Positions 13,060 to 20,407 of a DNA stretch of 32,492 nt are shown here, in pieces. A program made the position numbers and the translations under genes. The DNA comes from a virus. Its lineage: Duplodnaviria > Heunggongvirae > Uroviricota > Caudoviricetes. The stretch's first letter is position 1; each line of letters begins with the position of its first letter. The DNA lies in IMG/VR virus record IMGVR_UViG_2744054675_000007, positions 1-32,492 of that record; one strand, written 5' to 3'. The notes below the pieces were generated by a model. It made no database searches. It saw only the letters and a list, made by a program, of their open reading frames with translations, and was not told where the DNA came from.

Positions 13060-14432
13060 GACAGGATATCGAAGCGAGCGTTATCGGTGGCCTGCTGATT
13101 GGTGGATTAACTCCAACCGCCAGTGACGTTCTGGCAACGCTGGAGCCGGAAGCGTTTTCAATTCCGCTCTACCGGAAAGCCTTCGAGGTTATTCGCAAGC
13201 AGGCGAGAAACAGAAACCTAATCGATGCGCTGATGGTTGCCGAGGCGTGCGGAGAGGAGCATTTCACGTCAATCCTGATGACCAGCAAAAACTGCCCGAG
13301 TGCCGCAAACCTGAAGGGATATGCCGGAATGGTCGCGGATAACTATCACCGCCGTCTGGTGCTGGAAATCATGGATGAAATGCGTGAACCAATCCAAAGC
13401 GGAACCATCGACGCATCGAGTCAGGCGATGGATGAACTTGTAAAGCGTCTTTCAGCCATCAGAAAGCCCCGTGACGAGGTTAAACCTGTACGGTTAGGGG
13501 AAATCATCACTGACTACACTGACACGCTTGACAGGCGTCTGAGGAACGGAGAAGAGTCAGATACCCTGAAGACCGGAATCGACGAACTTGACGCCATCAC
13601 CGGAGGGATGAACGCGGAAGACCTTGTGATAATCGCCGCTCGTCCTGGTATGGGGAAAACCGAACTGGCGCTGAAGATTGCCGAAGGCGTTGCAAGCCGC
13701 GTTATTCCTGGTTCTGACGTCCGGCGCGGGGTATTGATTTTCTCAATGGAAATGAGCGCATTGCAGATTGCAGAGCGAAGCATTGCCAACGCCGGGAGGA
13801 TGTCGGTTAGCGTACTGCGAAATCCTGCATCGATGGATGACGAAGGCTGGGCGCGTGTTGCTAACGGCATGAGTCAGCTTGCAGATTTGGATGTATGGGT
13901 AGTCGATGCCTCGCGGTTATCGGTCGAAGAAATTCGCTCAATCGCAGAGCGGCACAAACAGGAAAATCCAAACCTGTCACTCATCATGGCGGATTATCTT
14001 GGCCTGATTGAGAAGCCGAAAGCAGACCGCAACGACCTCGCAATTGCTCACATCTCCGGAAGCCTGAAGGCGATGGCGAAAGACCTGAAAACGCCTGTTA
14101 TCTCCCTGAGTCAGCTTTCGCGCGATGTTGAGAAGCGACCAAACAAACGCCCGACAAACGCAGATTTGCGTGATTCAGGAAGCATTGAACAGGACGCAGA
14201 CTCAATCATCATGCTCTATCGGGAAGCGGTATATGACGAGAACAGTAGCGCCGCGCCATTTGCTGAAATCATCGTGACGAAAAACCGTTTTGGCTCACTT
14301 GGTACGGTTTACCAGCGGTTCTGCAACGGACACTTTGTTGCATGTGATCAGGATGAAGCCAGACAGATTTGCACAGCATCAAATGCACCTGCTGCGCGTG
14401 GCAGACGATATGCACAAGGGGCGGACGTATGA
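13056..14432 (+). CDS. DnaB-like replicative DNA helicase
   Basis: 458 aa; DnaB N-terminal domain and Walker A GMGKT in a RecA-like C-terminal domain; position after the O-like gene. Confidence 0.9.
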
Positions 14433-17136: not shown

Positions 17137-17321
17137 ACGCCACAATTCAAACGATACCAGAGCTTCTTATCCAGACACGAGGCAATCAGACCGAAGTGGC
17201 GAGGATGCTTTCCTGCGCAAGAGGAACAGTGCTCAAGTACAACCGAGACAGCAAAGGCGAGCGTCACGTAATAGTTAACGGCGTCCTGATGGTCAAACAG
17301 GGCAAGAGGGGAAGACGATGA
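17133..17321 (+). CDS. ninH: NinH-family protein
   Basis: 62 aa; TIPELLIQTRGNQTEVARMLSCARGTVLKY resembles lambda NinH (TIPDMLVEAYGNQTEVARRLKCSRGTVRKY). Confidence 0.75.
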   Translation: MNATIQTIPELLIQTRGNQTEVARMLSCARGTVLKYNRDSKGERHVIVNGVLMVKQGKRGRR

Positions 17322-17836
17322 GCATAAGAGAACTAAACCTCACCAAAGAGCAGCACGAGTGGCTGAATGGCTGGCTTGAACTGTGGGGCGCATGGGTTTA
17401 TTCAGGTCGTCTGGAAAAGCGCATGAGCAGCGTAATAGCGAAGTTCATGGAGAGCGTAGAGCCGGGAAGAATTATGACAAGGCCAATGTGTAATGATGAT
17501 GATGGAATGTTGATTTCTCAGGTCGTCGATTCCGTCATGTACATTGACAAGAAAGCCTTTGGCATCCTCCTCAGCTACTACGCTCATGGTTCATCTAAGC
17601 GAGCAATTGCATCCTACTATCACGCGACTGCAAAGCCACGCAAGATGTGTGGACGTGGTGGCGAGGGATGGAGAAAACCTTCACTGGCAACCTGTAGAAA
17701 CGAAATTGACGACATCCTGAAAGCGTCGTTATTTGTTTTGTACCAGCCAATGCAAAATGCTTTCAAAATGCGTAAACGTGTTGAGAAAGTTAAGCATGTT
17801 GCTGTTAAAAACCTTGACATGCAATTAGCCATTTAG
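17318..17836 (+). CDS. Q: late-gene antiterminator Q (family uncertain)
   Basis: 172 aa ORF at the canonical Q position between ninH and the late promoter/lysis genes; Cys/His-containing; assignment mainly positional. Confidence 0.55.
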   Translation: MSIRELNLTKEQHEWLNGWLELWGAWVYSGRLEKRMSSVIAKFMESVEPGRIMTRPMCNDDDGMLISQVVDSVMYIDKKAFGILLSYYAHGSSKRAIASYYHATAKPRKMCGRGGEGWRKPSLATCRNEIDDILKASLFVLYQPMQNAFKMRKRVEKVKHVAVKNLDMQLAI

Positions 17837-17898
17837 CCATAATTGGCAGGTAAGCTGCCGTTAGTGACTCTTAAGTTGCAACGGTGGCTTTTTTATTT
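17814..17898 (+). promoter_or_regulatory. putative late promoter PR' with downstream hairpins and T-run (qut/tR'-like)
   Basis: TTGACA at 17814..17819, 18 bp spacer, CATAAT at 17838..17843; hairpin GGCAG-GTAAG-CTGCC then a second stem and CTTTTTTATTT ending at 17898. Confidence 0.35.
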
Positions 17899-17973
17899 GG
17901 GTCAGTCGTATAAAGGTCATTACGGAAGGCTGTTAACCTTCTTATCGTGGTTCGAGTCCACGCTGTCCCGCCA
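17899..17973 (+). tRNA. phage-encoded tRNA-like gene, anticodon GTT (Asn)
   Basis: 75 nt hand-folded cloverleaf: acceptor GGGTCAG/CTGTCCC (one T-T mismatch), anticodon stem GAAGG/CCTTC with loop CTGTTAA, canonical T-arm CGTGG-TTCGAGT-CCACG, 3' GCCA. Confidence 0.45.
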
Positions 17974-17978
17974 AACAT

Positions 17979-18054
17979 GCTGATTTAGCTCCAATGGTAG
18001 AGCAGTCGCCTTGTAAGCGAATGGGTAGCGGGTCAAGTCCGTTAACCAGCACCA
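17979..18054 (+). tRNA. phage-encoded tRNA-like gene, anticodon TGT (Thr)
   Basis: 76 nt hand-folded cloverleaf: acceptor GCTGATT/AACCAGC (one mismatch), D-arm GCTC-CAATGGTA-GAGC, anticodon loop CTTGTAA, T-arm AGCGG-GTCAAGT-CCGTT, 3' ACCA. Confidence 0.45.
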
Positions 18055-18298
18055 AAACTGAGCCGTAGCCACTGGCTATCCTGAATTCATCAGTGATAGT
18101 TACGCTGCGGCCTTCTACACATGACCTTCGTGAAAGCGGGTGGCAAGAGGCTGCGCTAACAACCTCCTGCCGTTTTGCCCGTGCATATCGGTCACGAACA
18201 AATCTGATTACTAAACACAGTAGCCTGGATTTGTTCTATCAGTAACCGACCTTATTCCTAATTAAATAGAGCAAATCCCCTCAATGAAGGGGTAGAGC

Positions 18299-18502
18299 AT
18301 GTACCGTATGGACAAAATCAGAGAATGGTTCAGTTACAGCTTCGGAGGACTGACTGCGATGGGTGGCATTCTCTCCCTGAATGACTGGGCTGTCATCATT
18401 GGTATTCTTTGTACTGTCGGCACATTTGGCGTCAACTGGTACTACAAGCGCAAAGAGCGCGAGGACAGATTGAATGGCAATGTCACCGGCACTACGAAAT
18501 AG
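18299..18502 (+). CDS. holin, probably pinholin type with dual-start motif
   Basis: 67 aa; MYRMDK dual-start-like N-terminus, two hydrophobic segments, charged C-terminus; immediately precedes and overlaps the SAR endolysin. Confidence 0.7.
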
Positions 18503-18977
18503 CGTAATAGCGGCGATAAGTGGCGGGGCTATTGCTATAGCATCTGTGTTAATCACTGGACCAAGTGGTAACGATGGTCTGGAAGGTGTCAGCTACATGC
18601 CATACAAAGATATTGTTGGTGTATGGACTGTATGTCACGGACACACCGGGAAAGACATCATGCTCGGTAAAACGTATACCGAAGCAGAATGCAAAGCCCT
18701 CCTGAATAAAGACCTTGCCACGGTCGCCAGACAAATTAACCCGTACATCAAAGTCGATATACCGGAAACAACGCGCGGCGCTCTTTATTCGTTCGTCTAT
18801 AACGTGGGCGCAGGCAATTTCAGAACATCGACGCTTCTTCGCAAAATCAACCAGGGCGATATCAAGGGTGCATGTGACCAGCTACGTCGCTGGACATACG
18901 CTGGCGGTAAGCAATGGAAAGGGCTGATGACTCGCCGTGAGATTGAGCGTGAAGTCTGTTTGTGGGGGCAGCAATGA
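18474..18977 (+). CDS. SAR endolysin (lysozyme with N-terminal signal-arrest-release domain)
   Basis: 167 aa; weakly hydrophobic Gly/Ala-rich N-terminal segment ([19 protein letters not shown]) followed by a lysozyme-like domain. Confidence 0.8.
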
Positions 18978-19411
18978 GCAGAGTAACCGCGATTATCTCT
19001 GCTCTGGTTATCTGCATCATCGTCTGTCTGTCATGGGCTGTTAATCATTACCGTGATAACGCCATCGCCTACAAAGAGCAGCGCGATAAGGCCGCATCCA
19101 TCATCGCTGACATGCAGAAGCGTCAACGTGATGTAGCAGAACTCGACGCCAGATATACAAAGGAGCTTGCTGATGCTAACGCGACTATCGAAAGTCTCCG
19201 TGCTGATGTTTCTGCTGGGCGTAAGCGCCTGCAAGTCGCCGCCACCTGTGCAAAGTCAACGACCGGAGCCAGCAGCATGGGCGATGGAGAAAGCCCAAGA
19301 CTTACAGCAGATGCTGAACTCAATTATTACCGTCTCAGAAGTGGAATCGACAGGATAACCGCGCAGGTTAACTACCTGCAGGAATACATCAGGACGCAAT
19401 GCCTTCGATGA
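18974..19411 (+). CDS. Rz-like i-spanin
   Basis: ATGA overlap with the endolysin stop; N-terminal TM segment then coiled-coil periplasmic region; contains an embedded +1 frame lipoprotein ORF. Confidence 0.75.
19173..19358 (+). CDS. Rz1-like o-spanin (lipoprotein) embedded in Rz
   Basis: AGGAG RBS, ATG at 19173; signal peptide with lipobox VSAC and Pro-rich mature region ([13 protein letters not shown]), fully inside Rz in another frame. Confidence 0.6.
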
Positions 19412-19632: not shown

Positions 19633-20112
19633 ATGACCCAGCATATTGGCGTAAAACTGATTAACGCCTTTCCGATGACGAGACAGGCATATAACGATTT
19701 TCGTGGCTGGCAGCTTCCTGCCGGAGAAAACGGCGAGGACGAAGGCTATCTGGTTGAATATCTGGATGGCGGAAAACCTAACACCGATCGCTTTGATGGC
19801 TACGTTAGCTGGAGTCCAAAAGAAGTATTCGAAAAGGCTTATCGTCCTGTATCAGGGCTAAGTTTCGGCCTTGCCATGGAGGCGTTAAAACAGGGCAAGA
19901 GTTTGCAGCGGGCAGGATGGAATGGGAAAGACCAGTTTGTTTATCTCGTTAAAGGGGAAAAATTAGCGTCTGCGTTGGGTTATGGCTTTGGCGAATATGT
20001 TGGCGAGCCAACTTTCAATGACACGCTTGTATTGAAAAACTCACAGAACCGCCTTGCTACGTGGGTTCCATCCATTGGCGACCTGATGGCTGAAGACTGG
20101 CAAATCATTTAA
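19633..20112 (+). CDS. hypothetical protein with DUF2829-like (Tad2-like) C-terminal domain
   Basis: 159 aa; C-terminal half carries EALKQGKSLQRAGWNGK...FVYLV...WVPSIGDLMAEDWQII, which matches my recollection of the DUF2829 signature; N-terminal half has a weaker similar pattern. Confidence 0.5.
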   Translation: MTQHIGVKLINAFPMTRQAYNDFRGWQLPAGENGEDEGYLVEYLDGGKPNTDRFDGYVSWSPKEVFEKAYRPVSGLSFGLAMEALKQGKSLQRAGWNGKDQFVYLVKGEKLASALGYGFGEYVGEPTFNDTLVLKNSQNRLATWVPSIGDLMAEDWQII

Positions 20113-20407
20113 CCATGTAGGCATTACAAAGCACATCTACGGGTGGGCTTGATAATGAAACCGGAGTTAATTTCTGGTCACCAATTAACGGCAGTACAGC
20201 GAAACAACCCAAGCCAGTAAGTGGGGAAATAACACTGGCAGCCACTGAAAGATGAACCTCCTGCCTTATGGCAAAAAAGATTCTTTGTGGTGGCGGACTG
20301 ATGGAAAGACATCGGATAGAATAAAACAGTGGCTAGGGTAGCTCCCGAAAAGCGGAATCGTCACCGCCAGCCACTGAATCTATGACGAACAACTAGACGA
20401 GGTTGAT

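Follow-up and report, generated by a model that had tools for sequence, protein, structure and literature searches.

Organisation of the late leader and its flanking genes

The window, by which we mean the whole stretch of 32,492 nucleotides analysed here (IMG/VR record IMGVR_UViG_2744054675_000007), carries a P22-like prophage integrated at thrW of E. coli. The left junction (1369–2619) comprises a host thrW-type tRNA-Thr(CGU) gene on the plus strand (1369–1444; found by ARAGORN, Rfam score 71.8 bits) and an integrase gene on the minus strand (1459–2619; Pfam Phage_integrase), and the flank upstream of this tRNA gene is 100% identical to E. coli proA. Integration into a host tRNA-Thr with an anticodon other than that of the phage tRNA-Thr, as proposed in the first-pass annotation, was thus confirmed by the tRNA-Thr(CGU) gene lying beside the integrase ORF and downstream of proA. 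Elsewhere in the window the prophage shows no signs of decay, its ORFs being dense, contiguous and of the sizes expected.

The gene at 17318–17836 on the plus strand encodes a Q-family late antiterminator of 172 amino acids (Pfam PF06530 Phage_antitermQ, E = 1.6e-25), and the homologous records carry an “antitermination protein Q” at the same place. The gene runs at its 3′ end into the -35 element of the late promoter PR′, which spans 17814–17843 on the same strand with TTGACA at 17814–17819 and CATAAT at 17838–17843, separated by 18 bp. This promoter matched the consensus at 11 of 12 positions in a promoter scan, and the homologous site in Sf6 is annotated as PR′. The promoter spacer contains a direct repeat, ATTAGCCA (17824–17831) and TTTAGCCA (17832–17839), at the position of the Q-binding element (QBE) of phage 21, annotated in the same spacer as ATTGAGCA/AATGAGCA; by analogy, the repeat in the window is a putative QBE. 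The promoter is followed by the intrinsic terminator tR′ of the late leader (17852–17898, plus strand), with a hairpin at 17852–17890 and the T-run TTTTTTATTT at 17889–17898. The hairpin has a folding energy of -20.2 kcal/mol (z = -4.63), a stability reached by 0 of 200 shuffled sequences; it has the sequence of the phage 21 terminator, and the Sf6 homologue is annotated as tR′. The promoter scan and the hairpin thus support the putative late promoter and terminator that had been noticed ahead of the tRNA genes.

The first tRNA gene, tRNA-Asn with anticodon GUU (17899–17973, plus strand), starts with the base directly 3′ of the T-run (17898 to 17899), exactly as had been read earlier, and is separated by a spacer of 5 nt from tRNA-Thr with anticodon UGU (17979–18054, plus strand). 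A conserved non-coding leader of 244 nt (18055–18298, plus strand) connects the tRNA cassette to the lysis genes. It is ~96% identical to Sf6 and BTP1, where it is kept despite differing downstream holin genes, and it contained no third tRNA by ARAGORN and no Rfam family at E ≤ 1 in a permissive scan. The lysis cassette (18299–19411, plus strand; Pfam PF16080, PF00959 and PF03245) contains genes for a class II holin (18299–18502), an endolysin of the Phage_lysozyme family (18474–18977) and an Rz spanin (18962–19411). A Tad2-like anti-defence gene is located 1.6 kb downstream of the tRNA cassette in the same operon. The location of the tRNA genes between Q and lysis, likened at first to lambdoid phages, agrees with the Pfam hits on both flanks and with the annotations of phage 21, Sf6 and BTP1.

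Two phage tRNA genes of a conserved family

The pair had first been recognised by hand-folding as adjacent GTT-Asn and TGT-Thr genes, and both were called in place by ARAGORN and by the Rfam tRNA model RF00005. The Rfam scores were 55.3 bits (E = 1.7e-9) for tRNA-Asn and 52.1 bits (E = 1.4e-8) for tRNA-Thr, well above the gathering score of 29 bits and not sub-threshold, the outcome that had been named as speaking against them. AsnRS recognises the GUU anticodon and G73, whereas the identity elements for ThrRS are G1-C72, C2-G71, G35 and U36. The tRNA-Asn sequence has G34, U35 and U36, the discriminator base G73 and an encoded CCA end, and its T-loop (GGTTCGAGTCC) carries the universal T54-Ψ55-C56 together with A58. 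The tRNA-Thr sequence has G1-C72, C2-G71, G35 and U36 along with A73 and an encoded CCA end.

The single mismatch reported earlier in each acceptor stem was found at U4·U69 in tRNA-Asn and at A5·C68 in tRNA-Thr. The tRNA-Asn of the window is the commonest allele of its family, with 69 identical loci in the allele tally, and is identical in sequence to the copies in phage 21, Sf6 and BTP1. As judged from the alleles of the family, U4·U69 and U13·U22 are conserved traits of this tRNA and U4·U69 is not a mark of decay.

The module was found in at least 120 IMG/VR contigs and in 254 of 5,426 complete E. coli genomes, and the Asn and Thr genes occurred together in ~114 of 120 loci, even in loci that have the two in reverse order and with diverged sequences. 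The single-sequence MFE z-scores of the two tRNAs (-1.7 and -0.3) were as usual for tRNAs and are uninformative for this class of RNA, and so covariation was used instead. In the tRNA-Thr family, seven pairs have changed on both sides, 94.8% of the cells are paired and none of 500 shuffles reached the observed covariation score; the anticodon arm is invariant because it served as the search anchor, and is therefore silent on covariation either way. In the tRNA-Asn family, compensatory changes were seen at 6-66, 7-65 and 28-42 in a sublineage. These compensatory changes indicate that the cloverleaf is maintained by selection at the level of the family. In an ungapped comparison of the upstream regions, the cassette abutted the T-run in at least three distinct promoter/terminator contexts; because the T-run varies by 1 nt in length, many rows of this comparison are blurred, and it shows only that several promoter/terminator types abut the cassette.

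These results together show that the two genes are genuine phage tRNA genes belonging to the known phage 21-type late-leader Asn/Thr cassette of P22-like and lambdoid phages; the reading as a whole, including the expression and codon supply expected of the cassette, is given a probability of about 0.75. The module itself is already known, with annotations in phage 21, Sf6, BTP1 and SfI and discussion in the literature, and its finding here is a correct rediscovery of a feature annotated in reference phages that by itself adds little.

Private substitutions in the tRNA-Thr gene

The tRNA-Thr of the window differs from the commonest allele of its family by two private substitutions, G5→A (17983) and T54→G (18032). 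The first creates the sole acceptor-stem mismatch of this tRNA, A5·C68. The second is the G that had been noticed at the first T-loop position; owing to G54 (GGGTCAAGTCC) the tRNA-Thr fails the universal T54-Ψ55-C56/A58 test, which tRNA-Asn passes. G54 was present in 0 of 122 related loci and T54 in all 122, and A5 occurred in only two of the 122, both with T68, so that the pair is kept there. Pair 5-68 is a standard one in all 19 other tRNA-Thr alleles, through five pair types. The two changes cost 9.4 bits in the Rfam score (52.1 as compared with 61.5 for the Sf6 allele), and the energy of the cloverleaf in silico was -16.3 against -23.1 kcal/mol, a loss of ~6.8 kcal/mol with a smaller predicted T-loop. 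Neither the 254 E. coli genomes nor the GenBank records of phages contained a match of ≥99% to this tRNA-Thr, and its private alleles were absent from IMG/VR, GTDB species representatives and JGI metagenomes. The region carries ~9 private differences in 510 nt, two of them within the 76-nt tRNA-Thr, which is approximately the rate of the flanking non-coding DNA; others are found nearby, for example at 17811, 17845, 17847, 18055 and 18103. On its sequence, the tRNA-Thr of the window is probably a weakened copy.

Whether this weakening amounts to decay was weighed together with the possibility of an error in the sequence. A tRNA-Thr decaying here as a hypomorph or incipient pseudogene beside an intact tRNA-Asn would be compatible with the cassette being genuine, and we give it a little under even odds. 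Both substitutions lie at constrained positions (pair 5-68 and T54), they lower the Rfam score and the predicted stability of the cloverleaf and shrink the predicted T-loop, neither was seen in any of the collections searched, and they have accumulated at roughly the rate of the neighbouring non-coding DNA. However, a rate test would need more than two substitutions, both tools still place the gene far above threshold, its identity elements and CCA end are all intact, and the prophage ORFs elsewhere in the window are undecayed; moreover, some tRNAs tolerate acceptor-stem A·C mismatches and variants other than T54. That A5 and G54 are instead sequencing or assembly errors, the real sequence being the commonest allele, is quite improbable. 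None of the collections searched contained the allele a second time and both changes fall at positions otherwise held fixed by selection, as errors might, but the further private substitutions nearby are those expected of a truly diverged lineage, and neither 17983 nor 18032 lies in a homopolymer of more than three bases. The earlier choice between functional tRNAs and relics is thus answered in part: at the level of the family, the compensatory changes indicate maintenance by selection and the Asn mismatch is a family trait, while the two defects of the Thr copy are private and at constrained positions. If real, this tRNA-Thr is a natural double mutant (A5·C68 and G54) of a strongly conserved phage tRNA, and would offer a ready-made hypomorph for tests of cassette function.

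Expected expression and codon supply

The cassette begins one base past the T-run of tR′, and the promoter scan of the plus strand from 17843 to the holin gene found no further promoter-like site. A separate tRNA promoter was ruled out on the same grounds, and transcription of the cassette would thus be possible only from PR′, by polymerase reading through tR′. The tRNAs would be expressed mainly after antitermination by Q, at the head of the late transcript, and would be released from it by the tRNA-maturation machinery of the host. The RNase P cleavage sites would lie at G1 of each tRNA, and both the encoded CCA ends and the spacing of 5 nt fit trimming by exonucleases. In the phage L paper, excision of these tRNAs from the late mRNA is stated as not known (PMC8022706), and a literature search for expression data on the BTP1 tRNAs found none.

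Such processing might be the main purpose of the cassette, with the tRNA structures acting in cis so that cleavage by RNase P and RNase E separates the terminator leader from the late mRNA and gives the latter a defined 5′ end, decoding being secondary. The cassette is fixed at the extreme 5′ end of the late transcript and directly follows the T-run in no fewer than three promoter/terminator contexts, which would suit such a role. We nevertheless regard it as very improbable, because a pure processing signal would have no need of the anticodons, CCA ends and synthetase identity elements that are conserved here, the Asn-with-Thr anticodon identity is kept across rearranged cassettes, and P22 and lambda share the late-operon layout without the tRNAs.

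As genuine tRNAs, the pair would add decoding of ACA, ACG and ACU and of AAC and AAU during the bulk synthesis of lysis and virion proteins. The comparison of late-gene and host codon usage that the first-pass annotation had proposed supports this for one tRNA and hardly for the other. ACA occurs 14.5 times per 1,000 codons in the late genes as compared with 6.3 in a 50-kb sample of the host (odds ratio 2.3, p = 2e-6), and since the host uses this codon rarely and the phage is enriched in it 2.3-fold, the case for codon supply by tRNA-Thr(UGU) is reasonable. Also in favour of codon supply, 17 of the 19 Asn codons in the coat gene are AAC. ACA is, however, only the seventh most enriched codon in the late genes, and its enrichment is equal in the early genes, whose translation precedes the expected appearance of the tRNA, which counts against a role in late supply. 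The case for tRNA-Asn is weak. The Asn codons are barely enriched (odds ratios of 1.16–1.26, p = 0.04–0.09), and E. coli K-12 has four tRNA-Asn genes; supplementation therefore does not explain the tRNA-Asn gene. The same codon pattern has been published for SfI (PMC3636060) and phage L (PMC8022706), and the authors of the SfI study called the significance of its tRNA-Asn “not clear” (PMC3636060). P22 and lambda lack the cassette (PMC8022706), which is thus dispensable.

A tentative link to tRNA-cleaving nucleases

A counter-defence role of the pair is a rival reading, favoured in that codon bias leaves the tRNA-Asn gene unexplained. The Asn(GUU)/Thr(UGU) pair in the late operon of lambdoid and P22-like phages would here be a putative counter-measure against PARIS-type (AriB) or similar enterobacterial tRNA-cleaving nucleases, mainly replacing or shielding the host tRNAs that are cut, with resistant phage versions sustaining late translation; we consider this rather unlikely. 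The anticodons of the cassette are those of two AriB targets, tRNA-Thr(UGU) as a prime one and tRNA-Asn(GUU) as a secondary but biologically relevant one, and the T5 variants of Lys, Thr and Asn rescue infection (PMC12409363). The AriB site has been defined as U36-A-A-U39-C40/A41 (the slash marking the cut), at which cleavage is abolished by U39→A and inhibited by A41→C (PMC12409363). The host sites read UAAUC/A in thrU and UAAUC/C in asnT, and those in the window read UAAGC/G in tRNA-Thr and UAACC/U in tRNA-Asn, so that at determinants 39 and 41 the phage tRNAs have G39 and G41 (Thr) or C39 and U41 (Asn) against U39 with A41 or C41 in the host. The T5 tRNA-Thr (UAAGC/A) shows the same replacement of A31-U39 by C31-G39 as that of the window. 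Furthermore, C39 is present in 115 of 116 cassette tRNA-Asn genes across five anticodon-stem sequences, and the co-occurrence of Asn and Thr even with reversed order and divergent sequences, the Tad2-like gene downstream in the same operon and the restriction by PARIS of lambda, a phage that has no tRNAs (PMC9122126), all point in the same direction.

Against these stand several observations. A G31-C39 pair is common in tRNA-Asn of other bacteria, and a difference from the host at position 39 is likely in any tRNA that has diverged, so that the match at the AriB determinants carries little weight. Readers of A-starting codons generally abound in phage tRNA sets, which confounds the coincidence of anticodons. 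In T7 and T5 the triggers of PARIS are early proteins, whereas the cassette tRNAs would appear late. The primary target tRNA-Lys(UUU) was found in 0 of 120 cassettes and is absent from the window by ARAGORN, while in the published experiments rescue depended on the T5 tRNA-Lys variant (PMC12409363). A literature search for a link between AriB and lambdoid tRNAs found none, only unrelated papers. Were the counter-defence role true, it would answer the published puzzle of a tRNA-Asn unjustified by codon usage in phage 21, Sf6 and SfI-type phages, and the idea of an anti-defence role for viral tRNAs, applied to large virulent phages such as T5, would come to cover small temperate ones.

Comparison with known systems

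The closest likeness of the cassette is to that of phage 21 (OL657228.1), in which the order of the tRNAs, the 5-nt spacing and the site after the tR′ T-run and before the holin gene are the same. The tRNA-Asn genes are identical at 75 of 75 positions, the tRNA-Thr genes at 74 of 76, only that of the window having A5 and G54, and the terminator hairpins are identical. The annotated tRNA-Asn and tRNA-Thr of phage 21, Sf6 and BTP1 are 97–100% identical to the pair in the window, and the cassette is also annotated in SfI, HK446, Kapi1 and mEp506. The promoter spacer carries ATTAGCCA/TTTAGCCA as in Sf6, where phage 21 has its QBE ATTGAGCA/AATGAGCA, implying that the Q specificity differs, and the holin belongs to the HP1 class II family and not to S21 or lambda S.

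The Stx-phage 933W has the tRNA cluster ileZ-argN-argO between Q and the stx/lysis genes. In both systems, the tRNA genes lie downstream of a Q-dependent late promoter and terminator and would be co-transcribed with the late genes, and the two differ in their tRNA identities, which are Ile and Arg in 933W and Asn and Thr in the window. The host genes thrU and asnT share with the phage tRNAs the anticodon loops, the discriminator bases and the CCA ends, and G1-C72 and C2-G71 for ThrRS are shared as well. However, the identity is only 55/76 (72%) with thrU and 48/76 (63%) with asnT, and the anticodon stems differ at four of five pairs in Thr and three of five in Asn; recent capture of host thrU or asnT was ruled out on these values.

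The tRNAs of T5 are not close homologues of those in the window, with 50/76 (Thr) and 48/78 (Asn) identical positions. The Thr and Asn anticodons, two of three, are nevertheless the same, position 39 is not U in either phage, and the two tRNA-Thr have C31-G39 in common in place of the host A31-U39. The tRNA-Lys(UUU) partner found in T5 is absent from the window, and T5, with its large early cluster of tRNA genes, is virulent, whereas the phage in the window is temperate and its pair would be expressed late.

The tRNA pair belongs to a known late-leader cassette

ARAGORN called three tRNA genes in the whole window, all on the + strand: tRNA-Thr(cgt) at 1369–1444, tRNA-Asn(gtt) at 17899–17973 and tRNA-Thr(tgt) at 17979–18054, which scored 71.8, 55.3 and 52.1 bits, respectively, with the Rfam tRNA model (gathering score 29). 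As the first-pass annotation had claimed from folding by hand, the latter two lie directly behind a T-run (TTTTTTATTT, 17889–17898), and both passed the two tRNA finders comfortably rather than scoring below threshold. Both genes encode the CCA end. The Rfam alignment reproduced the acceptor-stem mismatch claimed for each (U4·U69 in tRNA-Asn, A5·C68 in tRNA-Thr) and added one further non-standard pair for each, U13·U22 in the D stem of tRNA-Asn and G27·A43 as the uppermost pair of the Thr anticodon stem. The T-loop of this tRNA-Thr is GUCAAGU and not UUCAAGU, and the G reported for its first position (54) is thus present.

The first 1,368 bases of the window match proA from E. coli (strain LF82, for example) with 100% identity, and the integrase gene follows tRNA-Thr(CGU) on the opposite strand. 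This junction is the thrW attachment site, known for P22-like phages (PMC8022706), in agreement with the proposed integration at a host tRNA-Thr of another anticodon, and, judged by its ORFs, the prophage is P22-like and apparently intact. The pair was rightly placed between Q and lysis, with a Q-family antiterminator upstream (17318–17836, PF06530) and a class II holin (18299–18502), endolysin (18474–18977) and Rz (18962–19411) downstream. The order is Q, late promoter PR′, terminator tR′, tRNA-Asn, a 5-nt spacer, tRNA-Thr, a 244-nt conserved leader without an Rfam match to a further RNA family, and the lysis genes. Directly after Rz and 1.6 kb beyond the two tRNA genes, a 159-aa ORF (19633–20112, +) matches PF11195 (Tad2-like, Thoeris anti-defense 2; E = 6.4e-22, residues 77–159) and is probably an anti-defence gene of the late operon. 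Between the lysis and terminase regions, 20326–20388 (+) matches the int-alpA sRNA family RF02996 with 42 bits (gathering score 35.8) and several alignment gaps.

Megablast of 17780–18300 matched 181 phage records, many of which annotate "tRNA-Asn" and "tRNA-Thr" between "antitermination protein Q" and "holin". For Sf6 (AF547987), PR′, the qut site, tR′, tRNA-Asn and tRNA-Thr are all annotated, every one with a note of its similarity to phage 21, and BTP1 has the same two tRNAs. The phage 21 record (OL657228) annotates −35, QBE, −10, start site, pause element, terminator, tRNA-Asn, tRNA-Thr and S21; window and phage 21 share one and the same terminator hairpin sequence, and their tRNAs are identical at 75/75 (Asn) and 74/76 (Thr) positions. 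Published descriptions include Asn GTT and Thr TGT genes in a P22-like prophage (PMC2629481) and tRNAs at the same position in Sf6, ST64T, PS3 and p21 (PMC3636060). Thus, the pair is the already annotated phage 21-type late-leader cassette, and its interpretation as phage tRNAs familiar from lambdoid phages is supported. The cassette tRNA-Thr occurs on at least 120 IMG/VR contigs and in 254 of 5,426 complete E. coli genomes, and at least three distinct promoter/terminator arrangements place the same T-run next to the cassette, which argues for a mobile mosaic module.

Several IMG/VR contigs carry larger cassettes around the same tRNA-Thr (L006, L009, L040, L056, L075, L077, L098, L114 and others), with the order Asn-Phe(GAA)-Thr-Arg(UCU), sometimes then Gly; rarer forms are Asn-Tyr-Thr-Ser, Ser-Thr-Arg-Met and a reversed Thr-Asn. 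On contig L015, a tRNA-Ile(GAT) at 13532–13606 replaces tRNA-Asn. In the anticodon arm it agrees with the Asn gene apart from the single anticodon change GTT→GAT, which identifies this cassette tRNA as an anticodon-shift mutant. The virulent phage N4 (NC_008720.1, 32625–32700) and relatives have a tRNA-Thr 84% identical to that of the cassette; E. coli thrU is more distant (72%), a hint of a phage tRNA-Thr lineage shared across unrelated phage types.

The family is under selection and the window carries a private tRNA-Thr allele

A search anchored on the Thr anticodon arm, neutral for the positions in question, tallied 122 loci among the matches listed. In a cloverleaf-scored alignment of the 20 distinct tRNA-Thr alleles, 94.8% of cells were paired and seven pairs had changed on both sides (5/7 in the acceptor stem, 2/5 in the T stem). 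None of 500 shuffles and no slid control reached the covariation score of this alignment. The tRNA-Asn mismatches U4·U69 (17 of 21 alleles) and U13·U22 (20 of 21) include the commonest allele and are therefore family traits; compensatory changes at 6–66, 7–65 and 28–42 mark a 15-locus sublineage. These patterns show that the cassette tRNAs, as a family, are maintained by selection. Two tRNA-Thr copies (L013, L118) located after Asn-Phe are 3′-truncated or chimeric, diverge past position 66 and received no ARAGORN call; they are a real example of cassette decay.

The window tRNA-Asn is the commonest allele, and its tRNA-Thr differs from the commonest (85 of 122 loci among the matches listed) by exactly G5→A and T54→G. 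The 5–68 pair takes five standard forms in the Thr family (GC, GU, UA, AU, CG) and is unpaired only in the window allele among those listed; two other loci have A5, both with T68, keeping the pair. Position 54 is T in all 122 relatives among the matches listed. The allele was absent from the 254 E. coli genomes carrying the gene and from phage GenBank records (best identity 97.4% in both), and exact searches gave no match for the G54 allele in species-representative genomes, IMG/VR and JGI metagenomes or for the A5 allele in IMG/VR. With both changes, the Rfam score drops to 52.1 bits from 61.5 and the in silico cloverleaf energy rises from −23.1 to −16.3 kcal/mol, the energy change being nearly all due to G5→A; G54 is predicted to extend the T stem and shrink the loop. 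Since the surrounding 510 nt hold about nine window-private differences, two within 76 nt are close to the local neutral rate. The two changes could also be sequencing errors; recent weakening of this copy is the most economical explanation.

Codon supplementation and PARIS as possible roles

The suggested codon-usage comparison used as host sample 42 genes annotated in a 50-kb stretch of the LF82 chromosome. ACA reached 14.5 per 1000 in late and 16.6 in early genes against 6.3 in the host sample (late vs host OR 2.3, p = 2e-6), AAC 26.5, 22.7 and 21.2 (OR 1.26, p = 0.04), and AAC + AAU 43.8, 44.8 and 37.9 (OR 1.16, p = 0.085). The window coat gene uses AAC for 17 of 19 Asn codons. This pattern reproduces SfI, which has ACA bias without Asn bias and where the significance of tRNA-Asn "is not clear" (PMC3636060), and matches phage L, with AAC at 24 of 25 Asn codons of the coat gene (PMC8022706). 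These data make codon supplementation plausible for Thr(UGU), and the case for Asn(GUU) is weak.

Counter-defence against PARIS, whose nuclease AriB cleaves tRNAs, Thr(UGU) and Asn(GUU) among them, was considered as another role. AriB cuts between positions 40 and 41 within the determinant U36-A-A-U39-C40|A41, where U39→A abolishes and A41→C inhibits cleavage, and T5 variants of Lys, Thr and Asn tRNAs neutralise PARIS (Belukhina et al, PMC12409363). Positions 36–41 read UAAUC|A in host thrU, UAAGC|G in window and phage 21 Thr and UAAGC|A in T5 Thr; they read UAAUC|C in host asnT, UAACC|U in window and phage 21 Asn and UAAGU|U in T5 Asn. In favour of this role, C39 occurs in 115 of 116 cassette tRNA-Asn genes among the matches listed, across five anticodon-stem sequences, Asn and Thr stay together in about 114 of 120 loci among the matches listed, rearranged cassettes included, and lambda is restricted by PARIS (PMC9122126). 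Against it, tRNA-Lys(UUU), the primary AriB target and needed for the published rescue, is in no cassette among these matches, larger and rearranged forms included; other bacteria commonly have G31-C39 in tRNA-Asn; and phage tRNA sets generally favour A-starting codons. Our literature search found no paper connecting AriB to lambdoid tRNAs. Overall, counter-defence seems unlikely. The PARIS/AriB connection, as a candidate lead, and the private double-mutant Thr allele are the two points of value that remain for this cassette.

Late promoter and proposed expression

The putative late promoter and terminator upstream of the tRNAs were confirmed as a promoter-like TTGACA-18-CATAAT site (17814–17843; 11/12 positions matched) and a hairpin (17852–17890; −20.2 kcal/mol, z = −4.6, more stable than 200/200 shuffles). 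The promoter scan found no other promoter-like site on the + strand between 17843 and the holin gene, and the space from T-run to tRNA-Asn is too small for one. The tRNAs would be transcribed only by read-through of tR′, chiefly after Q modifies the polymerase, and would therefore appear together with the late proteins; RNase P cutting at G1 of tRNA-Asn would detach a leader of ~46–49 nt holding the terminator hairpin. Just 3′ of the −10, window-private substitutions at 17845 and 17847 (+; TGGCAGG vs TAGAAGG in Sf6 and BTP1) lie within the initially transcribed region, the site of a sigma-dependent pause element in phage 21, and could affect Q loading.

The −35/−10 spacer is filled by a direct repeat, ATTAGCCA/TTTAGCCA (17824–17839, +), where phage 21 has the Q-binding element ATTGAGCA/AATGAGCA. 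By analogy, this repeat is a putative Q-binding element of a specificity unlike that of phage 21. Its presence suggests an antiterminator of the Q21 family with a different DNA specificity, shared with Sf6, whose spacer repeat is the same as that of the window.
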